Positions 2,013-61,060 of a DNA stretch of 64,000 nucleotides are shown in pieces. Numbering within the stretch: the stretch's first letter is position 1; the number at the start of each line of letters is the position of its first letter. Origin of the DNA: a phage. The stretch lies in sequence record PZ445536.1; one strand, given 5' to 3'. The translations under genes were made by a program, and so were the position numbers. The notes under the pieces were generated by a model. That model was not told the origin of the DNA. It searched no databases and saw nothing but the letters and a program-made list of their open reading frames with translations.

Positions 2013-2020
2013 TTGATTAT

Positions 2021-2036
2021 GGGGCTTCGGCCCCTA
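2021..2036 (+). terminator. GC hairpin GGGGC-UUCG-GCCCC immediately after gene 18 stop
   Basis: perfect 5-bp GC stem with UUCG tetraloop directly after TAA of gene 18; overlaps first ATG of the next ORF. Confidence 0.6.
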
Positions 2037-2051
2037 TTCTCGAGGAAACAA

Positions 2052-2657
2052 GTGATTATTTCTAAGTTTGTTACAATAAAACCAAGAAATCATTCAAAAA
2101 TGTGGTCGACAATTCTGGGATATAAAGTATCATATCATGATACACTATCTGTTCCAATAGAATTAATGCCAAAGAATAGTAATAAAATAGTTGACGCTAA
2201 ATGTGATTTGTGTGGTATTAAATTTAGTAGAAGCATTCAGCTTTTAAATAGAACACCCACGCATGCATGTAGAAAATGTAGCATTAAACAAGTTGCTATT
2301 AAAAATTCGGAAGTTCAATCTGGAATAAGTAGACCATGGCAAAGAGGTGATAAACATCCTCGATGGACTGGTAAAAGAAAAGAGTTTGCATTATATGCTA
2401 GTAGAGTTCATTCTATAACTAAGTCAGCTAAAATAAGAAAAATCTGGTCAAAATGGCCAAATGCTGATAAAATAGGAGTGTGTGGCGTAGAAGGTGCTTA
2501 CCAACTCGATCATAAAGTATCTATCAAATATGGATTTGATAATTTAATTCCGCCGGAAATTATAGCAAGCGTAAAAAATTTAGAAATAATCACTTGGGAA
2601 TCTAACCGAGAAAAGTCAAAAAGAAATAGCGTAGATCTTTGGGATTTACTAGAATGA
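2052..2657 (+). CDS. HNH-family homing-endonuclease-like protein (free-standing, mob-like)
   Basis: ORF track 2013..2657; two CxxC pairs (CDLCG, CRKCS) followed by an HNH-like motif (LDHKVSIKYGFDN...NLEIITWESNREKSKRN); start uncertain: GTG at 2052 has a GAGGA RBS, alternative ATG at 2019 or 2100. Confidence 0.6.
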   Translation: MIISKFVTIKPRNHSKMWSTILGYKVSYHDTLSVPIELMPKNSNKIVDAKCDLCGIKFSRSIQLLNRTPTHACRKCSIKQVAIKNSEVQSGISRPWQRGDKHPRWTGKRKEFALYASRVHSITKSAKIRKIWSKWPNADKIGVCGVEGAYQLDHKVSIKYGFDNLIPPEIIASVKNLEIITWESNREKSKRNSVDLWDLLE

Positions 2658-2764: not shown

Positions 2765-3256
2765 ATGTTTGTAGATGATGTAACACGAGCGTTTGAATCT
2801 GGTGATTTTGCTCGACCTAACTTATTCCAAGTAGAAATTTCTTATCTTGGACAAAATTTTACGTTCCAATGTAAAGCCACTGCTTTACCAGCTGGTATTG
2901 TAGAAAAAATTCCAGTCGGATTTATGAACCGTAAAATTAACGTGGCAGGCGATCGTACATTCGATGACTGGACTGTTACAGTAATGAACGATGAGGCACA
3001 TGATGCTCGCCAGAAGTTCGTTGATTGGCAAAGCATTGCTGCTGGTCAAGGAAACGAAATTACTGGTGGAAAACCTGCAGAGTATAAAAAGAGCGCTATC
3101 GTTCGTCAATATGCTCGTGACGCTAAAACAGTAACAAAAGAAATTGAAATTAAAGGTCTGTGGCCTACTAACGTGGGTGAACTTCAATTAGATTGGGATT
3201 CAAACAATGAAATCCAAACCTTTGAAGTAACTCTTGCTCTCGATTATTGGGAATAA
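2765..3256 (+). CDS. 19: tail tube protein (gp19-like), 163 aa
   Basis: ATG with AGAGG RBS; 163-aa product, position after the sheath gene. Confidence 0.92.
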   Translation: MFVDDVTRAFESGDFARPNLFQVEISYLGQNFTFQCKATALPAGIVEKIPVGFMNRKINVAGDRTFDDWTVTVMNDEAHDARQKFVDWQSIAAGQGNEITGGKPAEYKKSAIVRQYARDAKTVTKEIEIKGLWPTNVGELQLDWDSNNEIQTFEVTLALDYWE

Positions 3257-3288: not shown

Positions 3289-4913
<1,625 letters not shown>

Positions 4914-4914
<1 letters not shown>

Positions 4915-5153
4915 TGGAAGGTTTAATTGAAGCTATTAAATCAAACGACCTCGTAGCCGCTCGTAAATTATTTGCTGAAGCCATGGCTGCAAGAACGACT
5001 GATTTAATTAAAGAAGAAAAAATCGCTATCGCTCGTAATTTCTTAATCGAAGGTGAAGAACCTGATGACGAGGATGATGACGAAGACGAAGATAGTGATG
5101 ATAAAGACGACAAAAAAGACAAAGACTCTGACGAAGACGAGGATGATGAATAA
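4914..5153 (+). CDS. 67: prohead core protein (gp67-like) with poly-acidic C-terminus
   Basis: TAATG overlap with gene 20; 79 aa ending in a D/E-rich tail. Confidence 0.85.
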
Positions 5154-5578
5154 TGCTTCTGATCCCTGAAACTCATGAATTAGTTCTCGAGAATGTCGAA
5201 GCACTTATTCCTGAAGCACAGGGTCGCTTTGACGAATTGTCTTCTGCTTTAAATAAAGACGATATAAATACAATTGTCGAGAATATGCTTGATGATGAAA
5301 CTGATTTAGCGGTTGCATTAGCTTCTATTAATGAAAATATGCCGTTAAATGAATTTATCGTTAAACATGTTTCTGCCCGTGGTGAAATTACTCGCACTAA
5401 AGATCGCAAAACCCGCGAACGTAATGCATTTCAAACTACCGGGTTGTCTAAAGCAAAACGTAGACAAATTGCTCGTAAAGCTACCAAAACGAAGATTGCC
5501 AATCCAGCAGGTCAATCTCGTGCTCAGCGTAAGCGTAAAAAAGCTCTTAAACGCCGTAAAGCATTAGGATTAAGCTAA
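5153..5578 (+). CDS. 68: prohead core protein (gp68-like), basic C-terminus
   Basis: TAATG overlap with gene 67; 141 aa; K/R-rich C-terminal 40 residues. Confidence 0.85.
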
Positions 5579-11620: not shown

Positions 11621-12751
11621 TTATGGATAGGTATAGATGATACCAGTTTCTAAAGCAGTTTTATGAATGATGTATCCATTACGCGATTCTTGGACATCAA
11701 CTTCTGGATAGTCTTTCATCATCTTCTGAAGAGTGTAACGATGCAGGTAGTATTTACTATCTGGATCGTCAGTTTTCCAATCTTTACCTTCTTCGGTCAT
11801 TTTTTGGATTTCATCCATAACCCACCAACCGCACCAGATGTAAGCTGAAGTGCGATGTGGAAGAGGATGAACATAAGGCAATTCACCTTCTGGTTCTGGA
11901 GCAACTTTATCAGTTACCTGAACTTGACCTTCTGCTGTGATAGTTTTGCTATCATAATCAGTAGCAGTAACAGTTGCAGTAACTTCAATAGTTTGACTTC
12001 CAATAGATGATGTATCAACAGTGTATACATTAGTTGACCCTTCTACTGGAGAAGAATCTTTCTTCCATGAATATTCGATTTGTGCTTCTTCTGGAGCATC
12101 CGTAACATTAGCAGTAAATGTAGCCGAAGCATCTTGCTGAACGTTAATAGAAGGAGGAGTCAATGTAACCCGTGGATTCATTGTTTTCTTATTAACAGTC
12201 AGTGATACTTCATTAGAAGTAACTTCCTTTTCATTGTAATTTTCAGCAGTTACTTGAGCTACACACTTGATTTTTTTAACTCCGCTTGTGTCAGGAGTGT
12301 AATTGAATGTAGCGTCAGTTGCTTCGTCTACAGGAGAACCGTCAACGTGCCATTGATACGTAGCGTTTGCACCTGATGGCTGCGAAGCTAAGGCAGCAGT
12401 AAATTGAACTGGGGTTCCAATCACTCCAGCATCAGGGCTACCAGGAGTTACTGCCAAAGTAGTCGTCTGTGTCTTATTTTGAACTGTGATAGTTGTAGTA
12501 GCTTCTGCTGTTTCAGCTTCAGCTTCTGGAACTGTATTTGTTGCAACTACTTTAATAGTCTTTTGACCGGCAGGTCCTTTTAATACATAATTAAAAGTTG
12601 CTTCAGCTCCATCTTGTGGAAAATCATCTACAGTCCAAGCATATGTAATAGGTCCATCTCCAGTTTGACCACTGGGTGTAGCAGTAAACTGCTGAGTCTG
12701 ATCTATAACTCCAGTAGGTGTTTTAGGAGTTATATCAACTGTAAAAGTCAT
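11621..12751 (-). CDS. hoc: highly immunogenic outer capsid protein Hoc, 376 aa
   Basis: 376 aa; three tandem Ig-like repeat units plus a conserved C-terminal capsid-binding region (LPYVHPLPHR...WCGWWVMDE). Confidence 0.9.
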   Translation of the reverse strand: MTFTVDITPKTPTGVIDQTQQFTATPSGQTGDGPITYAWTVDDFPQDGAEATFNYVLKGPAGQKTIKVVATNTVPEAEAETAEATTTITVQNKTQTTTLAVTPGSPDAGVIGTPVQFTAALASQPSGANATYQWHVDGSPVDEATDATFNYTPDTSGVKKIKCVAQVTAENYNEKEVTSNEVSLTVNKKTMNPRVTLTPPSINVQQDASATFTANVTDAPEEAQIEYSWKKDSSPVEGSTNVYTVDTSSIGSQTIEVTATVTATDYDSKTITAEGQVQVTDKVAPEPEGELPYVHPLPHRTSAYIWCGWWVMDEIQKMTEEGKDWKTDDPDSKYYLHRYTLQKMMKDYPEVDVQESRNGYIIHKTALETGIIYTYP

Positions 12752-23529: not shown

Positions 23530-23533
23530 CAAT

Positions 23534-23560
23534 GGGGACCTTTCGGTCCCCATATTTTTA
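23534..23560. terminator. terminator between convergent gene 54 and the alt cluster
   Basis: GGGGACC-UUUC-GGUCCCC hairpin followed by AUAUUUUUA. Confidence 0.7.
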
Positions 23561-23856: not shown

Positions 23857-23908
23857 CCTCATGTTATGTCAGTAAGACTACTATAACACAACACGAGGGA
23901 CTTGTAAA
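23857..23908 (-). promoter_or_regulatory. PeSL-like early promoter / stem-loop cassette upstream of the alt.-3-like ORF
   Basis: on the - strand: GTTTAC (-35), 17-nt spacer, TATAGT (-10); imperfect inverted repeat CCTCATG/CACGAGG brackets the -10 and includes the RBS; near-identical to 39084..39136. Confidence 0.55.
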
Positions 23909-25885
23909 CTACATTTTGAACTTTTTAGACATTCCGTTGATGTTAACCAAAGAAGCCAAGATTTGAGAAACTTCGTTTTCCTCTTCTTTTGATTCTTCTA
24001 CAAGGAATTGATTAAATCCAGCCATTGGACGAACTTCACCAGTTTCCATTAAATGGTCGCCATCATATACTGATTCTTCTAATTGTTCAGAAGGAGGAAC
24101 GATTGTACCTTCGATTAGATACTTGTTATAAGCAGTTTCTTTCATAAAGTACGTACTTACTTTATTAATCTTCAGTAAAATTCCACGCGGTAGAATAACT
24201 TCAGCTTCTGATGGAAATCCTGATAAATGACCTGGAACGATAACTTTGATTCGCTCAGCTCCTTTAATTACCATACCCACGCTAGTTTCAGCATCTTCAT
24301 TGGCATATGTAGAATGACTACCCATATGCATCAAATCTTCTGCATCAACAGAACCTTCTCCTTCGCCAGAAAATACTGCGCCGGAATCATCTAGAGCCAT
24401 ATAGTTTTTACCATGCTCACCGAAGATATTTGGTTTAAGCGATGTAGATACGAAGTTCTTGAAATAGAACATTTTGTTTTCAATGTTATGACGCAAAGTT
24501 TTAAAGGTAACTTCTTGTCCACGATAAAGCGTAGTTCCTGGAGGAAGAACTGAACCTTTAGCGAATGCAGAATCTAACGTCTCGATGTGCTTAATAGCTC
24601 GTTCCATATATTCTTCACGGGTAGAATCTGGTTTACCCAAAAGGAACGAGTTCATTTCAACATATGAATCTGCACAATAATCTTCAATTACATCAGATTC
24701 AGCTTGGGTTAATCCTTTTGGAGTTACTTCGGTGCTTGTGTATTCATATGCCTGAGCAGCAGATTCATTAATCAATTTATAAATGCCATTCATTACAAAT
24801 TGAATAATAGCTGTCTTTTCATCTGATGTAGCTTTAGAACCTTTAACTAAATCATTGATAATTTTCTTAATAACATCAAAGCTATTAGAAATATTAATGT
24901 CAGCAAGATCGCTTAAAATTTTATCAGTTTTATAATCAAAGAATTCTTTATTCTTTAAATATTCTTGAGAACCTTGATATGTTATATCGCTCTGCAGCTT
25001 GATAGATGGATCGCGTAAACGTGCATGGGCTAATGCAATATGATTTCGGAAGTTTTCTAGTTCATAATCATTAGATTTAAAACGAGAAGCACTTCTCATA
25101 CCACCGATAGCTCCTTTGCTGAAGTTTGAACCAATCTGGATAACGCCAGAGTTCATTGGTCCTTCTGCTTTATATACCGGAACTTTAGATTCAAACTCTT
25201 GATATTTCTTGGCAGCGAAGCTATCACCCTGAAGTGAAGCATCAACAGTAGAATATTGAGCTTGTGCTGCTAATCGACGACTAATTTTAGTTTTCTGAAT
25301 AACAGCTTGATCAGTGCGCTTATCATTTTCTAAAGCAATAGAAGCAGCAACAGCGACAGCTTTAGGAACAGCATTACCTGTTTTAACGTCTACATAAACA
25401 TCACCAACCTTTGATTCAACTTTTGTGAATAACTCAGTTGAAATAGGAGGTACACCTGGAATGTCTTCTAAATTGGCATTTTTACGGTAAACCATAATAT
25501 ATGCATACTTTTTATCATAGTCCCAGATTTCCTTTAAAAGAACATATCGACCTGCTCCTTTAGTACGTACTAAACGGTCAGCAATAACTTGTATTTGACG
25601 AGCAGCGCCATTTGTTTTACTTTTTAGTACGCGGAATAGGCATGCGTCAATTTTATACTGTTTCATTGTTTGAAGAGCAGTATCAAAAACAGCATTAATG
25701 ACGCCAATTGGATTTCCACCCAAGTTTCTAAGCTTAACTAGTGATAATTTCTCGTTGACACCTATCATTACGATATGCATCATTTTATCGCCCGGCTTAA
25801 CGTTTTTATTCGTATCACCGCCAGAGGTGTATGTACAAAAATCTAAATCCAGGAAGCACGCTTTCTTCACCGGCTTGAATAGCAA
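23909..25885 (-). CDS. Alt-like ADP-ribosyltransferase paralog, main ORF (N-terminal 50 codons lie in another frame); possibly frameshifted or a pseudogene
   Basis: 658-aa ORF begins at a TTG with no RBS; shares the conserved N-terminal domain and ART motifs (YRGQ, FVSTSL, EAEVILPRG) with the adjacent alt gene. Confidence 0.7.
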   Translation of the reverse strand: MLFKPVKKACFLDLDFCTYTSGGDTNKNVKPGDKMMHIVMIGVNEKLSLVKLRNLGGNPIGVINAVFDTALQTMKQYKIDACLFRVLKSKTNGAARQIQVIADRLVRTKGAGRYVLLKEIWDYDKKYAYIMVYRKNANLEDIPGVPPISTELFTKVESKVGDVYVDVKTGNAVPKAVAVAASIALENDKRTDQAVIQKTKISRRLAAQAQYSTVDASLQGDSFAAKKYQEFESKVPVYKAEGPMNSGVIQIGSNFSKGAIGGMRSASRFKSNDYELENFRNHIALAHARLRDPSIKLQSDITYQGSQEYLKNKEFFDYKTDKILSDLADINISNSFDVIKKIINDLVKGSKATSDEKTAIIQFVMNGIYKLINESAAQAYEYTSTEVTPKGLTQAESDVIEDYCADSYVEMNSFLLGKPDSTREEYMERAIKHIETLDSAFAKGSVLPPGTTLYRGQEVTFKTLRHNIENKMFYFKNFVSTSLKPNIFGEHGKNYMALDDSGAVFSGEGEGSVDAEDLMHMGSHSTYANEDAETSVGMVIKGAERIKVIVPGHLSGFPSEAEVILPRGILLKINKVSTYFMKETAYNKYLIEGTIVPPSEQLEESVYDGDHLMETGEVRPMAGFNQFLVEESKEEENEVSQILASLVNINGMSKKFKM

Positions 25886-25967
25886 AAATTTGTGGTATTT
25901 TATGCTTAGGATTTAAGTTAACAACCGGCGCCGAAGCGCCGTCAAATAATTCTGTAATAAGTTCCAT
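25815..25967 (-). CDS. N-terminal fragment ORF of the Alt-like paralog (50 codons, alt.-1-like)
   Basis: ATG with AGGA RBS; hand translation MELITELFDGASAPVVNLNPKHKIPQIFAIQAGEESVLPGFRFLYIHLWR*, collinear with the Alt N-terminus up to PGFRF, then out of frame. Confidence 0.6.
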   Translation of the reverse strand: MELITELFDGASAPVVNLNPKHKIPQIFAIQAGEESVLPGFRFLYIHLWR

Positions 25968-25970
25968 GAT

Positions 25971-28061
25971 TTATCCTTGAACGAACTTGTAAGGCATGTT
26001 TGCAATATCTATGCAAGACACAATAATTCCAAGAGATGATTCTACTTTCTGTTTAACATTTGATGAAACAAATGATGCAAAGTCAACTCTATCTTCTATA
26101 TCACCTGTCATTGCAACTACTTCGCCGGTTTCCATTAAACGGTCTCCGTCATAGATTACCGATTCGGTGAGTTCTTCGGTGGTCATAACTTCAGCTTGAA
26201 TGAGTTTTGTATTATTAGACGTGGTTCCGTCATTATTAGAAGCATCAGTTATTTTATTAACTTTGACCATCAATCCACGCGGTAGAATAACTTCAGCTTC
26301 TGTTGCTATTCCTAGACTTCCTGGATATACAACATTAACTTTATGAGCTCCATCAATTGCCCATCCTATTTGAACTTTAACGTATTCAGGATTTTCTTTA
26401 TACGCTCTTATTTCGTTTGGATTAATAGTTATTCCTTCTTCATTTTTATCAACTGTCAATTCATTACGAGCTTCTGGTTCTAAAAGACCAATACCAGCAT
26501 GTGTAATTCCAAAACGCCCAAAAATGATAGGAGTTAAAGAAGTAGATACAAAATTTCTGAAATAGAACACTTTATTTTTAACTAGTGCTTCGTATATAGG
26601 AGCAGTCATACTTTGTGCACGATAAACTGTAATGCCTTCCGGTATACGGTCACCATTTTCAAAAGCTGAATCTAAGTTATTTATAGCAGATTCAATTTCT
26701 TTTTCACTCATTACATCATATCGTTCTGGATTGTAGCGTCCTAAAAGAAGATTATTGATGTCAGTATATCCTGAACCACAATACTCTCTAATGCCGCGCT
26801 TTTGTGATGGAGTATATTTAGAACCATCACGGGCAATAGTAATATCAATCATTGGACCTGCACCAATTCCAGAAAAGCTATAAATCATTCGTTTGAGGAA
26901 TTTAGTTTTTGCTGCGTTCCAGGAATTTTTAGTTATTTCTTCCCAGACTTCATCTGGCTGTCCTTTACGGGTTTTATTATGTTTATCAAGCCAAGTATCT
27001 TTATATTCTTCAAAGAATTTATTAATAGCTGCTGCATACTTCTCTAAACATTTTATTGAAGTAGTTGGTTCATTTTTGATCGCATTAAGAATTACATCTT
27101 TAATTTTTTCAGAAACTTCATTAACCTCACTTTTTGAAAAGAATTTATAATCATAGTGAAGTTCATCTGCAGTTCCTTCGGCAATAATTTTTGCTGCCTT
27201 AGTTTTAGAAGCCAATGAATTAATTCCAAGTTTCATTTCTTCTGCTTCGGGAATTAAAGGAGCGGTAGCAGGTTTATTGAAATTAGCTGCGGTAGATTCA
27301 TACTTCTGGAATAATTCACTTTCAAATCTAGAAGATTCCAATGATTGACTTTGCGCAATTGCTCTACGGGAAATTTTAACTTTAACGATTACAGCTTGGT
27401 CAGAACGTTTATCATTTTCTTGTGCAATAGATGCTGCAATTGCCTCATTTTTAGTTACTTGAGCTCCAGTATCTTTATTGATATAAACATCGCCGACTTT
27501 CGATTCAACTTTAGTAAAGAGCTCGGTACTAATTTCCGGAACTCCTGGAATGTCTTCTAGTGATACATTTTTGCGATGTATAAGAATATATGCATACTTT
27601 TTATCATAATCCCAGAGTTCCTTAAGAAGGACGTATCTGCCACCTGAACGACTACGGATAAGTCTATCAGCAATAACTTGAATTTGTCGAGCTTGACCAG
27701 CGGTTTTAGACTTAAGAATACGAAGCATACAAGCATCAATTTTATACTGACGCATTGTTTGCATTGCAACAGTAAAAACTGAATTGATATAATTAATTGG
27801 GCTTGGACCAAGACCTTTTAATTTAGCAATTGAACCTTTAGCAGTTAATGTAAAAGGAACAATATGCATCATTTTATCGCCCATCTTTAAATCGCGATTA
27901 GTATCACCTCCAGATGTATAGGTGCATAAACGAAAGCCTGGTTGTTCAATTGCATCATCAACACGAACTGAAAAAATTTGTGGTATTTTCTTCTTTGGAT
28001 TTAAGTTTGTAATCGGAAGAGTAGTATCTTCGTCAAATAATTCTGTAATAAGTTCCATCAT
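25971..28061 (-). CDS. alt: Alt, capsid-packaged RNA polymerase ADP-ribosyltransferase
   Basis: N-terminus (M)MELITELFDEDTTLPITNL; ART triad R (VYRAQ), S-T-S (FVSTSL), E-x-E (EAEVILPRG); true start may be the second Met. Confidence 0.88.
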   Translation of the reverse strand: MMELITELFDEDTTLPITNLNPKKKIPQIFSVRVDDAIEQPGFRLCTYTSGGDTNRDLKMGDKMMHIVPFTLTAKGSIAKLKGLGPSPINYINSVFTVAMQTMRQYKIDACMLRILKSKTAGQARQIQVIADRLIRSRSGGRYVLLKELWDYDKKYAYILIHRKNVSLEDIPGVPEISTELFTKVESKVGDVYINKDTGAQVTKNEAIAASIAQENDKRSDQAVIVKVKISRRAIAQSQSLESSRFESELFQKYESTAANFNKPATAPLIPEAEEMKLGINSLASKTKAAKIIAEGTADELHYDYKFFSKSEVNEVSEKIKDVILNAIKNEPTTSIKCLEKYAAAINKFFEEYKDTWLDKHNKTRKGQPDEVWEEITKNSWNAAKTKFLKRMIYSFSGIGAGPMIDITIARDGSKYTPSQKRGIREYCGSGYTDINNLLLGRYNPERYDVMSEKEIESAINNLDSAFENGDRIPEGITVYRAQSMTAPIYEALVKNKVFYFRNFVSTSLTPIIFGRFGITHAGIGLLEPEARNELTVDKNEEGITINPNEIRAYKENPEYVKVQIGWAIDGAHKVNVVYPGSLGIATEAEVILPRGLMVKVNKITDASNNDGTTSNNTKLIQAEVMTTEELTESVIYDGDRLMETGEVVAMTGDIEDRVDFASFVSSNVKQKVESSLGIIVSCIDIANMPYKFVQG

Positions 28062-28081: not shown

Positions 28082-28089
28082 TATTTATA
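28082..28089 (-). promoter_or_regulatory. late promoter TATAAATA (minus strand) upstream of alt
   Basis: + strand TATTTATA, i.e. TATAAATA on the - strand, about 20 nt upstream of the alt ATG with GAGAGG RBS in between. Confidence 0.6.
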
Positions 28090-28112: not shown

Positions 28113-28299
28113 AATAATCTAGTGGTAAGAGAGTACGATATATTTCAAACTTTGGTCCTTTTTCATAGGCATCAAATGTTTCTGTAAATTTATTATAAGC
28201 GTATGCATCTACAAATTCGAGAATGACTTGTGATACAGAAGTAGAAACATCTCCACCTTCTTTTTGAGCAATGACAATTGTTTCTAAGTAAGCTTTCAT
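28111..28299 (-). CDS. hypothetical protein (62 aa)
   Basis: ATGA start/stop overlap with the ligase gene. Confidence 0.6.
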   Translation of the reverse strand: MKAYLETIVIAQKEGGDVSTSVSQVILEFVDAYAYNKFTETFDAYEKGPKFEIYRTLLPLDY

Positions 28300-29759
28300 A
28301 GACCAGTTACCTCATGAAAATCACCAAATACATCCTCGAATGTATTAGCTTTAGTTTTATCTTCACGTAAACGAATCGCAATCGGAAGAAATAATTTAAC
28401 GTAATCAGTGCGGCCATCAGATTTTAACCAACCGTTGCATTCGCACTCTAGAATTTTTCCAATATAATAATTTTGGTTTTCCATAATGCGAGTACGGTCA
28501 AGTTCATGCGATTTTACACCGGCTTTATCTTTTAAGCCTGAACCAGCATTTACCTTAATTTTTCCACACTCTGACTCAAGAATAAATCCACCTGCTTTAG
28601 TAGGGTCTTTACGGTGAGGATAAATTCCTACAATTTTTAAATCAACATCAATTACTTCTTTAAATTTATAAAGATTTTTTGAACGAGCATTTTCCCATAA
28701 TCCATCGATATTTTTGAGAATAATACCTTCAAGACCTTGGTCAATATATTTTTTATAAATTACCTTAGCTTCATTTAGGTTATTTACTACCTGGTTTTCA
28801 ATTAAAATTACTTTATCATAGCCTGATGTCATTTGTTCTAGTTTAGAAAAACGTACATCATATTTCAAACGAAATGCAGGAAGACCGTATATTTCTACCA
28901 ACGGAACATAATCCCAGACCTGAAACTTCATGCATTGTGCTTCTTTTTCTGAAATAGTTCCCTTTAAAGATTTATTAGCGATTCCATTAGAAGTAGTACG
29001 TGATTCAGCTACTTCAGCAAACTCTTTAGCTTTACTAATTTCAGGATAAGCATCAAAAAGAAAATCTAGGCCTTCTGGCTCCTTTTTAACTTGCTCATGG
29101 TATACCAATTCGCCATCAATTAACACACCTTCTGGATGAATCTGGCGGGCTTCAGCGGTCATTTTGATTAACTCTTCCTTAAGAAGATCTAATCCTAGAT
29201 ATTCATTACCAGCTCGTGATAAAAGACGGACATCATCTAATTCATCACCTCTAACTTCAGCAAAACACCGAGCTCCATCTGCTTTTAATTGTGCAAAGGC
29301 TGGAAATTTGATATTCTTACTAATGCCTTTTTCATCATAAGAACTTGCGAGCATTTGAGGTTGTTCAGGAATTAAACCTGGCCAAACTTTGTTTGCAATA
29401 GATACTGAAGCACCACATTCAAGGTCTCGCATCATCACTCGACGCAAAACTTCAACATCATCTTTTTTACCGTCAGTAATATAACCTACTAATTCCTCAA
29501 TTGCCGCATTTCCAGTCAATTTCCGAGTAGCTAATGTAAATTCAATGAAGTCAAGCATATCGGTAAGAGTCAACATTCCAAAACTCTGGGTAGCAATACC
29601 AGGTTTAGGCCATTTCTTGATATAATACTGCAACCCACGAGAATAAGTCAGACGATATACTCGTTTAAGCAATTCATTATCTTTATTCTTTTCAAGAATT
29701 GCTTGCTTCTGCTTAGTTGAACCAATAGATGCTATTTCGTTCAGAATTTTAAGAATCAT
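28296..29759 (-). CDS. 30: ATP-dependent DNA ligase (gp30-like), 487 aa
   Basis: 487 aa; N-terminus MILKILNEIASIGSTKQKQAILEKNKDNELLKRVY; adenylylation motif KADGAR. Confidence 0.93.
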   Translation of the reverse strand: MILKILNEIASIGSTKQKQAILEKNKDNELLKRVYRLTYSRGLQYYIKKWPKPGIATQSFGMLTLTDMLDFIEFTLATRKLTGNAAIEELVGYITDGKKDDVEVLRRVMMRDLECGASVSIANKVWPGLIPEQPQMLASSYDEKGISKNIKFPAFAQLKADGARCFAEVRGDELDDVRLLSRAGNEYLGLDLLKEELIKMTAEARQIHPEGVLIDGELVYHEQVKKEPEGLDFLFDAYPEISKAKEFAEVAESRTTSNGIANKSLKGTISEKEAQCMKFQVWDYVPLVEIYGLPAFRLKYDVRFSKLEQMTSGYDKVILIENQVVNNLNEAKVIYKKYIDQGLEGIILKNIDGLWENARSKNLYKFKEVIDVDLKIVGIYPHRKDPTKAGGFILESECGKIKVNAGSGLKDKAGVKSHELDRTRIMENQNYYIGKILECECNGWLKSDGRTDYVKLFLPIAIRLREDKTKANTFEDVFGDFHEVTGL

Positions 29760-35537: not shown

Positions 35538-35770
35538 AGTACGCCATACACCCTTTGTGCTTCAACTAATCCATCAAAATCCAATTTGAGATGTGTTATT
35601 TGGTCACCATCGCCTGGATTCACAATTACTAATACTGAACGAGGAGTTTCGGTAATAACACGAACCGATGTTTCAGGAAATCGTTCAGAAACCTTATTTA
35701 CCAATTCCTGAGCAAATAGTTTAACTTTTTCTTGGAATTCTTTAACAGTAATTGGTTTTTCACTTAGCAT
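35534..35770 (-). CDS. hypothetical protein (78 aa; cd.2-like)
   Basis: ATG with GAGGAA RBS. Confidence 0.6.
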   Translation of the reverse strand: MLSEKPITVKEFQEKVKLFAQELVNKVSERFPETSVRVITETPRSVLVIVNPGDGDQITHLKLDFDGLVEAQRVYGVL

Positions 35771-35791
35771 TTCAATTTCCTCATTTATTTT

Positions 35792-35830
35792 GGTAGAGCT
35801 ATAATATCACAACTCTACCGTAAAGTAAAC
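35792..35830 (-). promoter_or_regulatory. PeSL-like early promoter / stem-loop cassette
   Basis: - strand GTTTAC, 18 nt, TATTAT; 7-bp inverted repeat GGTAGAG/CTCTACC brackets the -10. Confidence 0.55.
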
Positions 35831-35832
35831 TA

Positions 35833-36108
35833 TTAAATTGCTTTGAATTCTGATGTCTGCGATTCAAAACGAATATCGCCTTTAATGACTAGCTCAGCAT
35901 CAAGACCGAATACGACAATGATATGCGCGGAACCTGGATACAGCGTAATGGCGATAGAATCAACCTGGTCTGGAAGCAAAGTGTTCAATACATGAGTCAC
36001 TTGAGCATGAATTCGAAGCTCAGCTGCGTTATCAAGCTTTTCAAACATATTATTAGCGATAATTTGGCTAAACACTACTTCTACGATTTTAGAATAAGTC
36101 GGAAACAT
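35833..36108 (-). CDS. hypothetical protein (91 aa)
   Basis: minus-strand ORF. Confidence 0.6.
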   Translation of the reverse strand: MFPTYSKIVEVVFSQIIANNMFEKLDNAAELRIHAQVTHVLNTLLPDQVDSIAITLYPGSAHIIVVFGLDAELVIKGDIRFESQTSEFKAI

Positions 36109-41933: not shown

Positions 41934-41984
41934 AAATTTTCCGCTTAGTTAATAGTTGGTGACTCGTCCGTGAGTCAAATTATA

Positions 41985-44249
41985 TCATAATTTACAGGAT
42001 GAACAATCTTCAGCTTTTGGAGTTTCTATTTCATAATCATCAGTACCAGAACCATCACGGGTATTATGATAATAGAAATTTTTTCCGCCAAAATACCAAA
42101 AATACAAAAGGTCATCAATCATTATTGACATTGGAACCTTTCCTTTTGGAAAAATCTGTGGGTCATAATATGTATTCGCTGAAGCTGATTGACATACCCA
42201 TTTCAGCATAATAGCTACCTGCGTAAGATAAGGTTTATTACCTTTCTTAGCTAATTTCCATGTATAATCATAGAGGTCTATGTTATGCTCAATATTGGGC
42301 ACGACTTGATTAAAGGAGCCCTCTTTTGATTCTTTAACAGAGACTGGTCCACGTGGAGGCTCGATACCGTTTGTACTGTTAGAAACTTGGGAAGATGACT
42401 CACATGGCATAAGTGCTGATAATGTGCTATTACGGATGCCAAAGAGCTTAAGGTCTTCCCGCAGCGACGACCAGTCACAAACGTATTTTGGAGCTGCGAT
42501 TTGGTCAATCTTTTTATTGTACCAGTCGATAGGTAATTCGCCTCGAGACCAACGAGTGTCTGAATAATATTCACAAGGTCCTTTTTCTTTGGCGAGCTTA
42601 ATGGATGCTTTAATGAGTCCATACTGTAATCTCTCAAATAGTTCATGTGTTAAATCGTTAGCATCTTCATAAGAAGCAAAGTTACTTGCCAGCCAAGCTG
42701 CATAGTTAGTAACACCTACACCAAGGTTTCGACGCTTTTTAGCTTTTTCTGCTTCAGGAACTGGATATCCTTGGTAATCCAAAAGATTATCAAGAGCACG
42801 AACTTGAACTTCTGCTAATTCATTAATTTTATCTTGGTCTTGCCAATCGAAGTTATCCAACACAAATGCAGATAACGTGCACAATCCAATTTCAGCATCA
42901 GGGCTATTCACATCATTTGTTGGAATAGCAATTTCACAGCACAAGTTACTCTGACGAATAGGTGCCTTTTCACGAATAAACGGAGTATAGTTATTCGTAT
43001 TATCAATGAACTGCACATAAATCCTTGCTGTTCCTGAGCGTTCAGTCATGAGCAATTCAAATAGTTCACGGGCTTTAATGCGCTTTTTACGAATATTAGG
43101 GTCTTTTTCTGCTGCTTCGTATAATTCACGGAAACGGTCTTGGTCTTTAAAATAAGAATAATAAAGCTCTCCACCCATTTCATGTGGACTGAACAAAGTA
43201 ATGTAATCGTTCTTTCCAAAACGTTCCATCATTAGATCATTCAGTTGAACACCATAATCCATATGACGAATGCGGTTTTCTTCTACACCTTTGTTATTTT
43301 TCAAAACGAGAAGATTTTCAACTTCCAAATGCCAAATAGGATAATAAGCAGTAGCAGCGCCGCCACGAATTCCACCCTGTGAGCATGATTTAACAGCAGT
43401 CTGAAAATGTTTCCAAAAAGGAATAACACCGGTATGGCGTACTTCACCCATGCCAATCTTAGAACCTTCAGCACGAATCATACCAACGTTAATACCAATT
43501 CCAGCGCGTTTAGAGATATATTCAACAATTGAAGCGGAAGCCTTATTGATAGACTTTAATGAATCACCTGCCTCAATAACAACACATGAACTAAACTGTC
43601 GAGTCGGAGTACGGCAACCAGCCATAATAGGAGTTGGCAATGAAATCTGTCGAGTAGATACTGCTTCATAAAAACGGATAACGTGTTTTAATCTATCAAC
43701 AGGTTCATCTTGATGCAATGCCATTCCAATAGTCATAAATGCAAACTGTGGAGTTTCATAAATTTGACCAGTGGTTTTATCTTTAACTAGATATTTTTCT
43801 TTTAATTGCATCGCCCCGGAATAAGTAAATTCCATATCCCGCTCGTGCTTAATTTTTGATTCTAAAAATGTAATTTCTTCTGCTGAATATTTTGACAATA
43901 ATTCAGGGTCGTATTTACCTTCATTTACACAGTAAGAAATATGGTCAATAAATGAACGTGGTTCATACTGCCCATAAACATGCTTACGAAGAGCGAACAT
44001 TAGACAACGTGCAGCTACATATTGATAATCAGGCTCTTCAACCGAAATAGAATTCGCAGCGGCCTTAATGACAATAGTCTGAATATCATCAGTTGTCATT
44101 CCATCACGGAGATAAGATTTAATATTTTCATATAATTCATAAGGATCTACCGATGTTCCTTCAGCTGCCCAAGATAAAACTTTAATAATTTTTTGTGGGT
44201 CAAAGCTCTGAGAAACACCACTACTTTTGATAACATTAATTAATTGCAT
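41985..44249 (-). CDS. nrdA: ribonucleotide reductase large subunit NrdA, 754 aa
   Basis: 754 aa with N-terminal ATP-cone region and C-terminal redox-active Cys pair (CSSCKL). Confidence 0.92.
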   Translation of the reverse strand: MQLINVIKSSGVSQSFDPQKIIKVLSWAAEGTSVDPYELYENIKSYLRDGMTTDDIQTIVIKAAANSISVEEPDYQYVAARCLMFALRKHVYGQYEPRSFIDHISYCVNEGKYDPELLSKYSAEEITFLESKIKHERDMEFTYSGAMQLKEKYLVKDKTTGQIYETPQFAFMTIGMALHQDEPVDRLKHVIRFYEAVSTRQISLPTPIMAGCRTPTRQFSSCVVIEAGDSLKSINKASASIVEYISKRAGIGINVGMIRAEGSKIGMGEVRHTGVIPFWKHFQTAVKSCSQGGIRGGAATAYYPIWHLEVENLLVLKNNKGVEENRIRHMDYGVQLNDLMMERFGKNDYITLFSPHEMGGELYYSYFKDQDRFRELYEAAEKDPNIRKKRIKARELFELLMTERSGTARIYVQFIDNTNNYTPFIREKAPIRQSNLCCEIAIPTNDVNSPDAEIGLCTLSAFVLDNFDWQDQDKINELAEVQVRALDNLLDYQGYPVPEAEKAKKRRNLGVGVTNYAAWLASNFASYEDANDLTHELFERLQYGLIKASIKLAKEKGPCEYYSDTRWSRGELPIDWYNKKIDQIAAPKYVCDWSSLREDLKLFGIRNSTLSALMPCESSSQVSNSTNGIEPPRGPVSVKESKEGSFNQVVPNIEHNIDLYDYTWKLAKKGNKPYLTQVAIMLKWVCQSASANTYYDPQIFPKGKVPMSIMIDDLLYFWYFGGKNFYYHNTRDGSGTDDYEIETPKAEDCSSCKL

Positions 44250-57286: not shown

Positions 57287-60200
57287 ATGGCTACTTTAAA
57301 ACAAATACAATTTAAAAGAAGCAAAACCGCAGGTGCACGTCCTGCTGCTTCAGTATTAGCCGAAGGTGAATTGGCTATAAACTTAAAAGATAGAACAATT
57401 TTTACTAAAGATGATTCAGGAAATATCATTGATTTAAGCATTTCCGCTGGCGGTAATATCAGTGGAAATGTAACTATTGATGGAACTTTACGCGTCAATG
57501 GACCAATAAACAATTTTGGAAATTTTTCCACAAGTGGCCAGATTACCGCTGGTAGTAGTATTTCAGCTCAAGTTTTTAGAGCATTGCAAGGTTCGTTTTA
57601 TACAAGAGCATCAAATGATGTCTCAAATGCCCATTTATGGTTTGAAAATGCCGATGGCACTGAACGAGGTGTTATATATGCTCGTCCTCAAACTACAACT
57701 GACGGTGAAATACGCCTTAGGGTTAGACAAGGAACAGGAAGCACCATTAATAGCGAATTCTATTTCCGTTCTATAAACGGCGGTGAATTTCAAGCCAATC
57801 GTATTTTAGCATCAGATTCGTTAGTAACAAAACGCATTGCAGCTGATACAGTTATTCACGGTGGCAAAGCCTTTGGTGTATATGATACGGATTCATTAGT
57901 TAACTACGTATACCCAGGCACCGGTGAAACTAACGGAGTAAACTATCTTCGTAAAGTTCGCGCTAAATCAGGCGGTACCATATGGCATGAGCTTTGTACT
58001 GCTCAATCAGGCCAAGCTGATGAAATGTCTTGGTGGACCGGTTCTACTCCTATTTCAAAACAATTTGGTATTCGTCATGACGGTCGGATGATTGTCCGCA
58101 ATAGTCTTGCATTAGGCACTATGACTACTGATTTTCCATCGAGCGATTATGGTAATGGTGGCGCATTAGGATTCGGTGCTTATTTGGCTCTAGGTGATAA
58201 CGGAACTGGTTTACGCTATCAAAAAACCGGTGTTTATGATTTAGTTGGTTCCGGATTGTCTGTTGCATCTATTACTCCAGATAGTTTCCGTAGTACTCGT
58301 AAAGCATTATTTGGACGTTCAGAAGACCAAGGCACCACATGGATTATGCCTGGAACGAACGCTGCATTTTTATCAGTTCAAACACAGGCTGATGAAAACA
58401 CTGCTGGAGACGGCCAGACGCATATTGGCTATAACTCAGGCGGAAAAATGAACCACTATTTCCGTGGTAAAGGCAAAACTAATATTAATACTCAGGAAGG
58501 TATGGAAGTTAATCCGGGTATTTTGAAATTGGTAACTGGCTCTAATAATGTAATGTTTTATGCTGATGGCGGTATTACATCTGTTAAGCAGCTTTCAATA
58601 TATAATGGCATATATTTAGCAGCTAATAATTCTACTGCTGGGCTAACATTCGCTCCAACTACTACAGTTGATGGTACTAAGCAAATTTTGTGGGAAGGCG
58701 GTACTCGTGCTGGGCAGAATAAAAGCTATGTAACTGTTAAAGCGTGGGGTAATTCATTTAACGCATCTGGCGATCGTTCCCGTGAAACAGTTTTTGAGGT
58801 AGGTGATGGGCAAGGTTACCATTTTTATTCTCAACGTGTAGCTCCTGCGCCTGGTTCGACTGTCGGGCCTATTCAACTCCGAGTTGATGGTGGTTTATTA
58901 ACTTCAGGTAGTATTGTTGCTTCTGGTTCTATTACAACCGAATCTTCTTTGAGTGTTAATAATGGCATGTCAGTAAACGGACAAGCTAAATTCGGTGGAA
59001 CTGCTGATGCATTAAGAATTTGGAATGCCGAATACGGTGCTATTTTCCGTCGCTCAGAAACAGCATTACATATTATCCCGACTCCCAAAGATGCCGGTGA
59101 AAGTGGTGGAATAAGTAATCTCCGCCCACTTAGTATTAGTCTTAATAATGGTATGGTACAAATGCGCCATTCTGTTACGTTAGGCGATGATGGCGCTGGC
59201 GGTAATATGATTACTGTGGACAACGATACCAAACTTGTTGTTGTTACTAGTAATAGTCGCATTTCTCCTAATTACCGTATGCAGGTAGGACAAGCAGCTT
59301 ATATTGATGCTGAATGTACTGACACAGTTCGCCCGGCTGGTGCAGGGTCTTTTGCTTCACAAAATAATGAAAACGTTCGTGCTCCATTCTATATGAATAT
59401 TAATCGCACAGATACAAGTACTTACGTTCCTATTTTGAAACAGCGATATGTCCAAGGAAACAGTTGTTATTCTCTGGGAACTCTAATTAACGGCGGTAAC
59501 TTCAGAGTTCATTATCATGAAGGCGGCGATGGCGGTTCGACTGGCGCTATTATAAAGGATTTAGGTTGGGAATTTACCAAAAATGGTGATTTTATATCTC
59601 CTAAGCGTGTTTCTGCTGGGGGTTCAGTTTATTTAGGTACAGACGGCAATATTACAGGTGGTTCTGGCAATTTTGCTAATTTAAACAGTACAATTGAATC
59701 ACTTAAAACCGATATTGTATCGAGTTACCCAATCGGTGCTCCTATTCCATGGCCAACGGATACTCCTCCTGACGGTTACGCTATTATGGAAGGCCAGACT
59801 TTTGATAAGTCTGCATACCCAAAATTGGCTATGGCTTACCCATCTGGCGTAATTCCAGATATGCGCGGGCAAACTATTAAAGGTAAACCAAGTGGTCGAG
59901 CTGTATTAAGCGCAGAAGCCGATGGTGTTAAGGCTCATAGCCATAGTGCATCGGCTTCAAGTACTGACTTGGGTACTAAAACTACGTCGAGTTTTGATTA
60001 TGGTACTAAGACGACAAGTAGCTTTGACTATGGCACTAAGACTAGCAATACCACAGGTAACCACTCTCATACTGTAAGCGGTACTACGAGTTCTGCTGGT
60101 GCACACCAACATGCGCGCTCAGGTCCTCAGTTACAAGCCGGCATACCCAATAACATATTCTATGACGGATATAATAGTGTAGGTGCAAACGCCAACGCTA

Positions 60201-60481
60201 AAATCACCGGATCTGTGAGCGGTGCTACTGCAGGGTCGAATATAGCCAAAACTTCTTCAGACGGTGCTCATACCCATACTTGGTCTGGTACTACAAGCAC
60301 TACAGGTAACCATGCTCACACAGTAGGTATTGGTGCTCATACCCATACTGTAGGTATCGGTGCTCATACCCACACGGTAGCAATTGGCTCGCATGGTCAT
60401 ACTATCACTGTAAATAGTACAGGTAATACAGAAAACACGGTTAAAAACATCGCTTTTAACTATATCGTTCGTTTAGCATAA
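57287..60481 (+). CDS. 37: long tail fibre distal subunit gp37 (receptor-binding), 1064 aa
   Basis: C-terminus ends [15 protein letters not shown]; His-box repeats ([31 protein letters not shown]); ORF longer than the roughly 1026 aa recalled for T4 gp37. Confidence 0.9.
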
Positions 60482-60484
60482 GGA

Positions 60485-60503
60485 GAGGGGCTTCGGCCCC
60501 TTC
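60485..60503 (+). terminator. hairpin GGGGC-UUCG-GCCCC after gene 37
   Basis: stable tetraloop hairpin between genes 37 and 38, overlapping the gene 38 RBS region. Confidence 0.55.
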
Positions 60504-60508
60504 TGAAT

Positions 60509-61060
60509 ATGAAAATATATCATTATTATTTTGACACTAAAGAATTTTACAAAGAAGAAAATTACAAACCGGTTAAAGGACTCGGTCTTCCTGCTCATTC
60601 AACAATTAAAAAACCTTTAGAACCTAAAGAAGGATACGCAGTTGTATTTGATGAACGTACTCAAGATTGGATTTATGAAGAAGACCATCGCGGCAAACGA
60701 GCATGGACTTTTAATAAAGAAGAAATTTTTATAAGTGACATTGGAAGCCCGGTTGGTATAACCTTTGATGAGCCCGGCGAATTTGATATATGGACTGATG
60801 ACGGTTGGAAAGAAGACGAAACATATAAACGCGTTTTAATTCGCAATAGAAAAATTGAAGAATTATACAAAGAATTCCAAGTTTTAAATAATATGATTGA
60901 AGCTTCTGTCGCGAATAAAAAGGAAAAATTCTATTATAAAAACCTTAAGCGGTTCTTTGCTCTTTTAGAAAAGCATGAGCATTTAGGTGGTGAATTCCCT
61001 TCATGGCCTGAAAAAGAACGGAAACCTTGGTATAAGCGTTTATTCAAGCATTACGTATAA
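60509..61060 (+). CDS. 38: tail fibre assembly chaperone gp38 (T4-type, 183 aa)
   Basis: 183 aa, MKIYHYYFDTKEFYKEENYKPVKG. Confidence 0.88.
   Translation: MKIYHYYFDTKEFYKEENYKPVKGLGLPAHSTIKKPLEPKEGYAVVFDERTQDWIYEEDHRGKRAWTFNKEEIFISDIGSPVGITFDEPGEFDIWTDDGWKEDETYKRVLIRNRKIEELYKEFQVLNNMIEASVANKKEKFYYKNLKRFFALLEKHEHLGGEFPSWPEKERKPWYKRLFKHYV

Follow-up and report, generated by a model that had tools for sequence, protein, structure and literature searches.

The Alt and Alt2 genes of the window

The window analysed here is a stretch of 64,000 nucleotides (nt) of phage DNA (sequence record PZ445536.1) from a Tequatrovirus, a T4-like phage whose best match is Escherichia phage FriedrichMiescher (98.0% identity over 24 kb). 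Its minus strand carries two neighbouring genes for ADP-ribosyltransferases (ARTs) of the Alt type, referred to here as Alt and Alt2. Enzymes of this type are expected to ADP-ribosylate host proteins such as the RNA polymerase alpha subunit in an NAD-dependent reaction. The two genes stand in the order lig (gene 30), alt.1, Alt, Alt2 and alt.-3, followed by gene 54 (gp54); this is the conserved position of Alt-type genes, between gene 30 and gene 54 and beside the baseplate genes. Alt is read in a single uninterrupted frame. Alt2 is not: its frame breaks at a run of five T on the coding strand (25837..25841), and the zero frame ends at a stop codon at 25817..25815. As it stands in the window, Alt2 is a pseudogene member of the Alt-type family by descent. 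How did it come to be broken, and is the extra base really there? The reading favoured here, with a probability of about 65%, is that a real mutation added the T recently and inactivated the gene, and that Alt2 is a pseudogene private to this strain.

The tandem itself is not new biology, as it is already known and annotated in hundreds of Tequatrovirus genomes. RB32, RB3 and T6 annotate the pair as alt and alt.-2 with the remark 'apparent insertion in alt.-2; similar to alt', RefSeq calls both genes 'Alt-like RNA polymerase ADP-ribosyltransferase', and in the BASEL phage FriedrichMiescher they go by the names Alt and Alt2. In total, 498 phage records match Alt2, and 402 of them cover at least 80% of the gene. 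A search of the literature for 'Alt2' or 'Alt-like RNA polymerase' found nothing relevant, and among solved structures none is related to Alt2 by sequence.

Is Alt2 a true relative of Alt? The long open reading frame (ORF) of Alt2, which has 658 amino acids (aa) and is called the body of the gene below, is 40% identical to Alt over ~670 aa (E = 4e-143), far beyond chance. Both proteins match the Pfam family PF03496 (ADPrib_exo_Tox), Alt with 129.2 bits and the Alt2 body with 72.1 bits (gathering score 23.4), and both match the PHROG 802 profile of Alt-like ARTs (E = 5e-272 for Alt over positions 1-674, E = 9e-238 for the Alt2 body). The Alt/VIP2 clade of ADP-ribosyltransferases is defined by an R-S-E triad (PMC5512222). 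In Alt2 the triad is found as R482 in YRGQ, S507-T-S509 and E587-A-E589, which align with YRAQ at 480, STS at 506 and EAE at 588 of Alt. The two paralogs are closest at the N-terminus, with 54-78% identity in the first ~250 aligned columns and 6-50% over the rest; identity is lowest in the middle (10-20%) and reaches ~40-50% in the conserved catalytic parts, with one low patch. Because only 6-50% of residues are shared beyond the conserved N-terminus, it is plausible that Alt and Alt2 are aimed at different targets.

The obvious reference for both paralogs is Alt of T4 (gpAlt), a mono-ADP-ribosyltransferase which is packaged in the head and injected. It shares PF03496, PHROG 802 and the R-S-E triad with them, as well as an N-terminal MELITE propeptide-like sequence, a C-terminal LMETGE, the baseplate-gene neighbourhood and a late-promoter motif. 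T4 Alt is non-essential and present in ~40 copies per head; it loses a 7-residue N-terminal propeptide, and its C-terminus is also cut by gp21 (PMC9026906). The Alt of the window has 696 aa from the ATG at 28061, or 695 aa from a second ATG at 28058, and it begins with MELITE and carries LMETGEV near its C-terminus. As a head protein, an Alt-type enzyme would have a short N-terminal propeptide and a C-terminal segment, with a gp21-type cleavage site after Glu at the end of each. Both paralogs begin with MELITE and have LMETGE close to the C-terminus, so Alt2 would probably be handled like T4 Alt, packaged and processed in the way Alt is. In the window, the N-terminal 43 residues of Alt2 are uncoupled from the body.

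Alt2 shares only 41% identity with T4 Alt. The Alt of the window is 98% identical to that of RB32 and 70% identical to that of T4 (3320..5368 of the T4 sequence compared), and the latter figure is unevenly spread: the first 250 residues are 96-100% identical per 50-column window, residues ~250-450 just 14-49%, and the catalytic and C-terminal parts 30-97%. At the DNA level, the match of Alt to T4, to BCH953P2 and to two alleles from IMG/VR or metagenomes is confined to its first 810 nt. Alt alleles are thus mosaics, and the pattern suggests that a variable middle module, possibly concerned with target recognition, has been swapped between phages.

The lesion in Alt2

The break falls at codons 43-44 of Alt2 (Table 1). 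Upstream of it lies an ORF of 50 aa consisting of 43 native residues (MELITELFD...LPGFRF) and seven out-of-frame ones (LYIHLWR) before the TGA at 25817..25815. The body continues in the +1 frame; this frame is open from 25912, and its 5' end has neither an ATG nor a Shine-Dalgarno sequence. The two ORFs cover adjoining parts of the PHROG 802 profile (positions 2-46 for the short one, 45-674 for the body), so they tile one gene. The 50-aa ORF also matches phrog_23015 (E = 2.7e-31). With 2059 nt, the locus is one base longer than the intact gene of the relatives (2058 nt), and deleting one T gives a 2058-nt ORF for 685 aa, with no internal stop and collinear with the relatives' intact Alt2.

Much of this had been proposed in an initial annotation of the window. 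Its identification of the two long minus-strand ORFs (658 and 696 aa) as Alt-type paralogs holds, given the 40% identity, the PF03496 matches and the aligned triad. Its observations that the body has no ATG or ribosome-binding site at its 5' end, while the 50-aa ORF has both, can be read directly from the sequence, and the frame switch at the plus-strand run of five A (25837..25841) was reproduced. Removal of one T does fuse the pieces, as it had claimed, into a protein of exactly 685 aa and not of about 700. The copy described there as upstream is indeed the split one, but it is upstream only in plus-strand coordinates; in transcription Alt2 lies downstream, distal to the promoter.

Table 1. 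Features of the Alt-Alt2 locus, in minus-strand order
Feature	Position	Strand	Remarks
DNA ligase gp30	29759..28296	-	
alt.1, 62 aa	28299..28111	-	Pfam PF24647 'Phage blade protein' (Phage_blade)
Late-promoter consensus match TATAAATA	28089..28082	-	~20 nt upstream of Alt start codon
Alt, 696 aa, intact, promoter-proximal	28061..25971	-	ORF; PF03496, PHROG 802
Alt motifs	YRAQ 26624..26613; STS 26546..26538; EAEVIL 26300..26283	-	
Alt2 Shine-Dalgarno AAGGA	25978..25974	-	inside Alt 3' end, 6 nt before ATG 25967
Alt2 locus, split, promoter-distal	25967..23909	-	alt.-2 of RB32/T6, Alt2 of BASEL phages
5' fragment ORF of Alt2, 50 aa	25967..25815	-	ATG, AAGGA Shine-Dalgarno
Alt2 body ORF, +1 frame, 658 aa	23909..25885	-	TTG start; ART domain, PF03496
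Lesion: five T on coding strand (plus-strand five A)	25837..25841	-	four T in every relative; context AGA-TTT-TTG
9-nt direct repeat ACTTTTTAG	25619..25627 and 23920..23928		both copies kept in window
M125I (ATG>ATA)	25592	-	surrounding 81-mer identical in 0/394 records
P381S	24826	-	private, nonsynonymous
A410T	24739	-	private, nonsynonymous
Alt2 motifs	R482 24523..24521; STS 24448..24440; EAE 24208..24200	-	
alt.-3, 96 aa	23848..23558	-	DUF5498
Terminator-like hairpin, bidirectional	23532..23553	both	between alt.-3 and gene 54
Gene 54	beyond hairpin	+	

The five-T run is private to the window genome

Is the split a shared feature of T4-like phages? The alignment that the initial annotation had called for shows the opposite of a conserved split, with the intact, four-T allele in all aligned relatives. 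Aligned with RB32, 310Ecol104PP, T4, FL12 and BCH953P2, the window alone has five T, and the others have four. An 81-nt stretch centred on the run was also used as a query and matched 454 phage records; the five-T form is identical in 0 of the 454, and the best matches (98.8% identity) span 80 nt, one base fewer. The repaired Alt2 aligns without gaps to 20 of 20 distinct full-length relatives from GenBank, IMG/VR and metagenomes, all with four T, and the 16 relatives inspected directly all read GATTTAGATTTTGTACAT. Exact-pattern scans of IMG/VR, JGI metagenome and GTDB genome contigs found the five-T allele in none of them, and the four-T allele in four IMG/VR and five metagenome contigs. The phage collection has no record identical to the window, the E. 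coli genome collection gave no match to it, and look-ups of the exact proteins of Alt (696 and 695 aa) and of the 50-aa ORF found no entry. The five-T run is private to the window genome.

The closest comparators are alt.-2 of RB32, RB3 and T6 and Alt2 of FriedrichMiescher. They follow alt directly, with alt.-3 and gene 54 coming next, carry the ART motifs, and match the repaired Alt2 (2058 nt, 685 aa) with 95-98% nucleotide identity and no gaps. The Alt2 of the window differs from these intact genes by the extra T at codons 43-44 and by three private amino-acid changes. In a sample of 48 full-length alleles spread evenly over the ranking, 46 span exactly 2058 nt; the two exceptions have one in-frame 6-nt deletion and one insertion of ~1.8 kb. 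OE5505 (NC_054926.1) has an in-frame 6-nt deletion. In ZCEC14 (OP168898.1) the Alt2 match comes in two pieces spanning 3858 nt, with an insertion of ~1.8 kb partly annotated as thymidylate synthase; this could be a real interruption or a misassembly.

A real mutation or a sequencing error?

The strongest alternative to a genuine mutation is that the extra T is a homopolymer error of sequencing or assembly and that the phage really has four T and an intact 685-aa Alt2. This reading is unlikely, though it deserves serious weight. A single-base difference in a homopolymer is the classic type of error, all 454 of the 454 relatives have the intact allele, and once repaired, the ORF extends over its full length and shows no further lesion. 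The pairwise ratio of nonsynonymous to synonymous substitution rates (dN/dS) of the window Alt2 is 0.03-0.06, like that between intact copies. But the error would be the only one of its kind in ~60 kb of coding sequence, and, for a systematic homopolymer error, five bases make a short run.

Comparison with FriedrichMiescher makes the first of these objections concrete. Of its proteins, ~88 align to the window over 95-100% of their length in one frame, and only Alt2 is broken. Five others have no match and three are partly matched: the distal half of gp37 is divergent, MotA runs off the end of the window, and Hoc part 2 aligns from residue 21. Most 1-nt gaps between the two DNA sequences are paired artefacts in divergent stretches. 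About seven other unpaired 1-nt indels remain, and by our reading none of them falls within a FriedrichMiescher gene match; they are intergenic, and the Alt2 site is the only coding one. As the window is mostly coding, random base-calling errors would fall mainly in genes, and the observed pattern of indels is that of selection. An assembly full of homopolymer errors is therefore rejected, the other matched genes being unbroken and the other unpaired indels, as read here, intergenic.

A second line of evidence comes from substitutions. Where Alt2 is intact, pairwise dN/dS is 0.01-0.06, i.e. the gene is under strong purifying selection. Compared with 20 relatives, the window Alt2 has three private substitutions, M125I, P381S and A410T, which are all nonsynonymous and all G:C to A:T transitions. 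Could these changes simply be common among relatives? They were not seen in the 394 or 380 records that match the stretches around them; for the 148-nt stretch over P381S and A410T, the best of the 380 records is 98.0% identical. Private Alt2 changes in 16 relatives number 23 nonsynonymous to 71 synonymous, against three to none in the window (binomial p = 0.015). In the neighbouring gp48, gp54, alt.-3 and ligase genes the private changes of the window are four nonsynonymous to 16 synonymous (Fisher p = 0.02 versus Alt2). The spectrum of private changes in these neighbours is mixed, compared with G:C to A:T throughout in Alt2, but the changes are too few for an interpretation of this difference. 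This small, post-hoc signal suggests that Alt2 has drifted without constraint on the window lineage alone. Relaxed constraint fits a real inactivation, and one miscalled base, being an indel, does not explain three private substitutions that are all nonsynonymous.

On this balance, the extra T would lie in the phage DNA and not in the assembly. Several points weigh against a genuine null mutation. A single homopolymer miscall would look exactly alike in sequence, the signal of relaxed constraint consists of three substitutions and was tested after the fact, and the five-T run is known from one assembly alone. In addition, a background +1 slip of tRNA-Phe would restore the residues F-C-T-Y, so the allele may be leaky and not null.

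If the mutation is real, its significance is routine: when a dispensable paralog gains one private nucleotide, this is ordinary gene decay, just as the alternative would be an ordinary assembly slip. The practical consequence concerns annotation. The ORFs of 50 and 658 aa are best joined into a single entry, marked as an Alt2 pseudogene with a frameshift, or corrected once the reads have been checked; they should be listed neither as two genes nor as a recoding site.

Translation of the split gene

What would the phage make from the broken gene? The stop codon of Alt (TAA, 25973..25971) is separated from the ATG of Alt2 (25967) by a gap of 3 nt, and the Shine-Dalgarno sequence of Alt2 lies inside the end of Alt, which indicates that the two genes are tightly, i.e. 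translationally, coupled. The T4 late-promoter consensus, TATAAATA, has 19 matches in the window (8.7 expected), and the match ahead of Alt would act as the promoter and give late expression of the locus, which fits the late synthesis of a head-packaged protein. A second exact match at 26678..26685 (minus strand) lies within the Alt coding sequence, ~710 nt upstream of Alt2, and may serve as an internal late promoter or be due to chance. At the Alt2 stop, ahead of alt.-3, there is also a match to a sigma-70-like promoter (TTTACA-17-TATAGT, preceded by TG, 23908..23880). An Alt-Alt2-alt.-3 transcript would probably end at the hairpin that separates alt.-3 from gene 54.

From this arrangement a simple course of events can be proposed. 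Alt and Alt2, two paralogous R-S-E ADP-ribosyltransferases, would be transcribed together late in infection and coupled in translation. The four-T run of Alt2 at codons 43-44 would have gained one T. Ribosomes starting at the intact ATG and ribosome-binding site would then make a 50-residue peptide and end at the TGA, and the 642 downstream codons, including the catalytic domain, would be essentially untranslated as they have no start signal of their own. No Alt2 protein would be made, and the phage would depend on intact Alt alone, like T4.

Can ribosomes still reach the catalytic domain in some other way? One route is reinitiation after the TGA at an in-frame ATG-ATG (M62/M63, 25783..25778), ~30 nt past the stop, which would give a truncated Alt2 of ~624 aa. 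Reinitiation at this kind of distance from a stop is a known process in bacteria and phages. The product would keep the ART domain and lose the N-terminal propeptide; its place of action would be the cell that produces it, and packaging would be unlikely. Yet the sequence before these ATGs (GCCGGGCGATAAAATGATG) contains no recognisable Shine-Dalgarno, no conservation argument speaks for reinitiation, and the three private nonsynonymous changes suggest that the body is no longer under selection. This makes a reinitiated Alt2 very improbable.

The other route is recoding, in which full-length Alt2 arises because ribosomes shift by +1 on AGA-UUU-UUG or because transcription slips on the five T, either as a programmed feature or as a useful low-dose leak. 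It is the least credible of the readings considered. The initial annotation had offered a pseudogene, recoding and a sequencing error side by side; the first and the last are still standing, and recoding is no longer a serious candidate, as the five-T run is private and short and has no associated structure. There is a local basis for the idea. After a +1 slip on U-UUU-U, tRNA-Phe can re-pair perfectly, which makes UGU the next codon and restores F-C-T-Y. The two frames overlap by ~95 nt (25912..25818), so any +1 event there gives a near-native fusion; a junction peptide of recoded Alt2 would read ...LPGFRFCTYTSGGDTNK. In this respect the site resembles the +1 site of E. coli prfB, in which the P-site tRNA can likewise re-pair in the +1 frame. 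Unlike prfB-type sites, however, it is not conserved and lacks an in-frame stop or hungry codon, an upstream Shine-Dalgarno and structure. The A site holds UUG, which is not a stop and does not count among the known hungry codons; no Shine-Dalgarno-like stimulator stands at the right distance from the shift site; and the 141 nt around it show no more folding than shuffled sequence does (z = 0.42). Efficient transcriptional slippage takes place on A or T runs of ~8-9 or more, and a run of five T is far below the slippage-prone length. The decisive point is conservation. A programmed site would be conserved, and the split arrangement is found in 0 of the 454 records, 0 of the 20 aligned relatives and 0 of the IMG/VR, metagenome and GTDB contigs. 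Programmed +1 frameshifting and transcriptional slippage are rejected on these grounds (no conservation, no stimulatory structure, a short run), and a background-level leak is the most that is expected.

A softer version of the same idea is that the five-T allele is not null and that spontaneous slippage of tRNA-Phe yields a little packageable full-length Alt2, as a low-dose or switchable effector. The odds of this are slight in the extreme. If it were true, 5' homopolymers (the T run here, an A run in T4) would be on/off or dosage sites of a host-specific accessory effector.

Natural loss of Alt2 and the T4 remnant

The reading of Alt2 as a strain-private pseudogene is in keeping with what has happened to the gene elsewhere. 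Alt2 is dispensable in nature: it can be lost, since ~19% of the records (96 of 498), T4 included, keep only a remnant of it. The T4-type remnant, annotated in T4 as alt.-1/alt.-2 (PHROG 23015 and 15247), joins 347-348 nt from the start of Alt2 to 20 nt from its end. Nolan et al. (2006) list these as paralogous duplications of alt (PMC1524935). GenBank notes differ on their origin, with 'old duplication of the first part of alt' for T4 and 'apparent insertion in alt.-2' for RB32 and T6. The window offers a different explanation, as the 9-nt direct repeat ACTTTTTAG occurs twice in its Alt2. At the T4 junction, with the sequence GAACTTTTTAGTACGCG, there is one such site (2970..2978 of the T4 sequence compared). 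The repeat pair of the window and the T4 junction together indicate that alt.-1/alt.-2 of T4 is the leftover of a 1699-bp deletion between the ACTTTTTAG copies and, as judged from these sequences, not a partial duplication.

The T4 remnant is also a decayed second paralog with a 1-nt change in a homopolymer, but a different one: in T4 alt.-1/alt.-2 a run of five A has become four A, ~30 nt downstream of the mutated site of the window. A further difference is that the window keeps the whole gene (2058+1 nt) and both ACTTTTTAG copies. Alt2 has then been lost in at least three ways, by the T4-type deletion, by the frameshift of the window and by a possible insertion in ZCEC14. Constraint on the gene when intact, combined with its repeated loss, fits a conditionally useful injected effector.

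Other differences from FriedrichMiescher

Between the genes for tail sheath (gp18) and tail tube (gp19) the window has an ORF for a Cys-rich protein of 214 aa (2013..2657, plus strand), where no alignment with FriedrichMiescher is obtained. This ORF is probably the insertion of a free-standing homing endonuclease. Conversely, four FriedrichMiescher genes (15454, 38404, 45094 and 50731), three of them putative homing endonucleases and one hypothetical, have no counterpart at the corresponding sites of the window (~13480, 35770-35836, 41946-41989 and 46908). Mobile elements typically come and go in this way among T-even phages. The hoc gene (11624..12751, minus strand) is in one frame in the window, compared with overlapping 'Hoc part 1 / part 2' in FriedrichMiescher, and is another frame-split accessory gene in this phage group. 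Finally, the distal half of gene 37 (57287..61060), which encodes the long tail fibre, shares only ~55% identity with its FriedrichMiescher counterpart, and the adhesin gp38 is unmatched, so that, judging by these sequences, the phage of the window has a different receptor-binding module.

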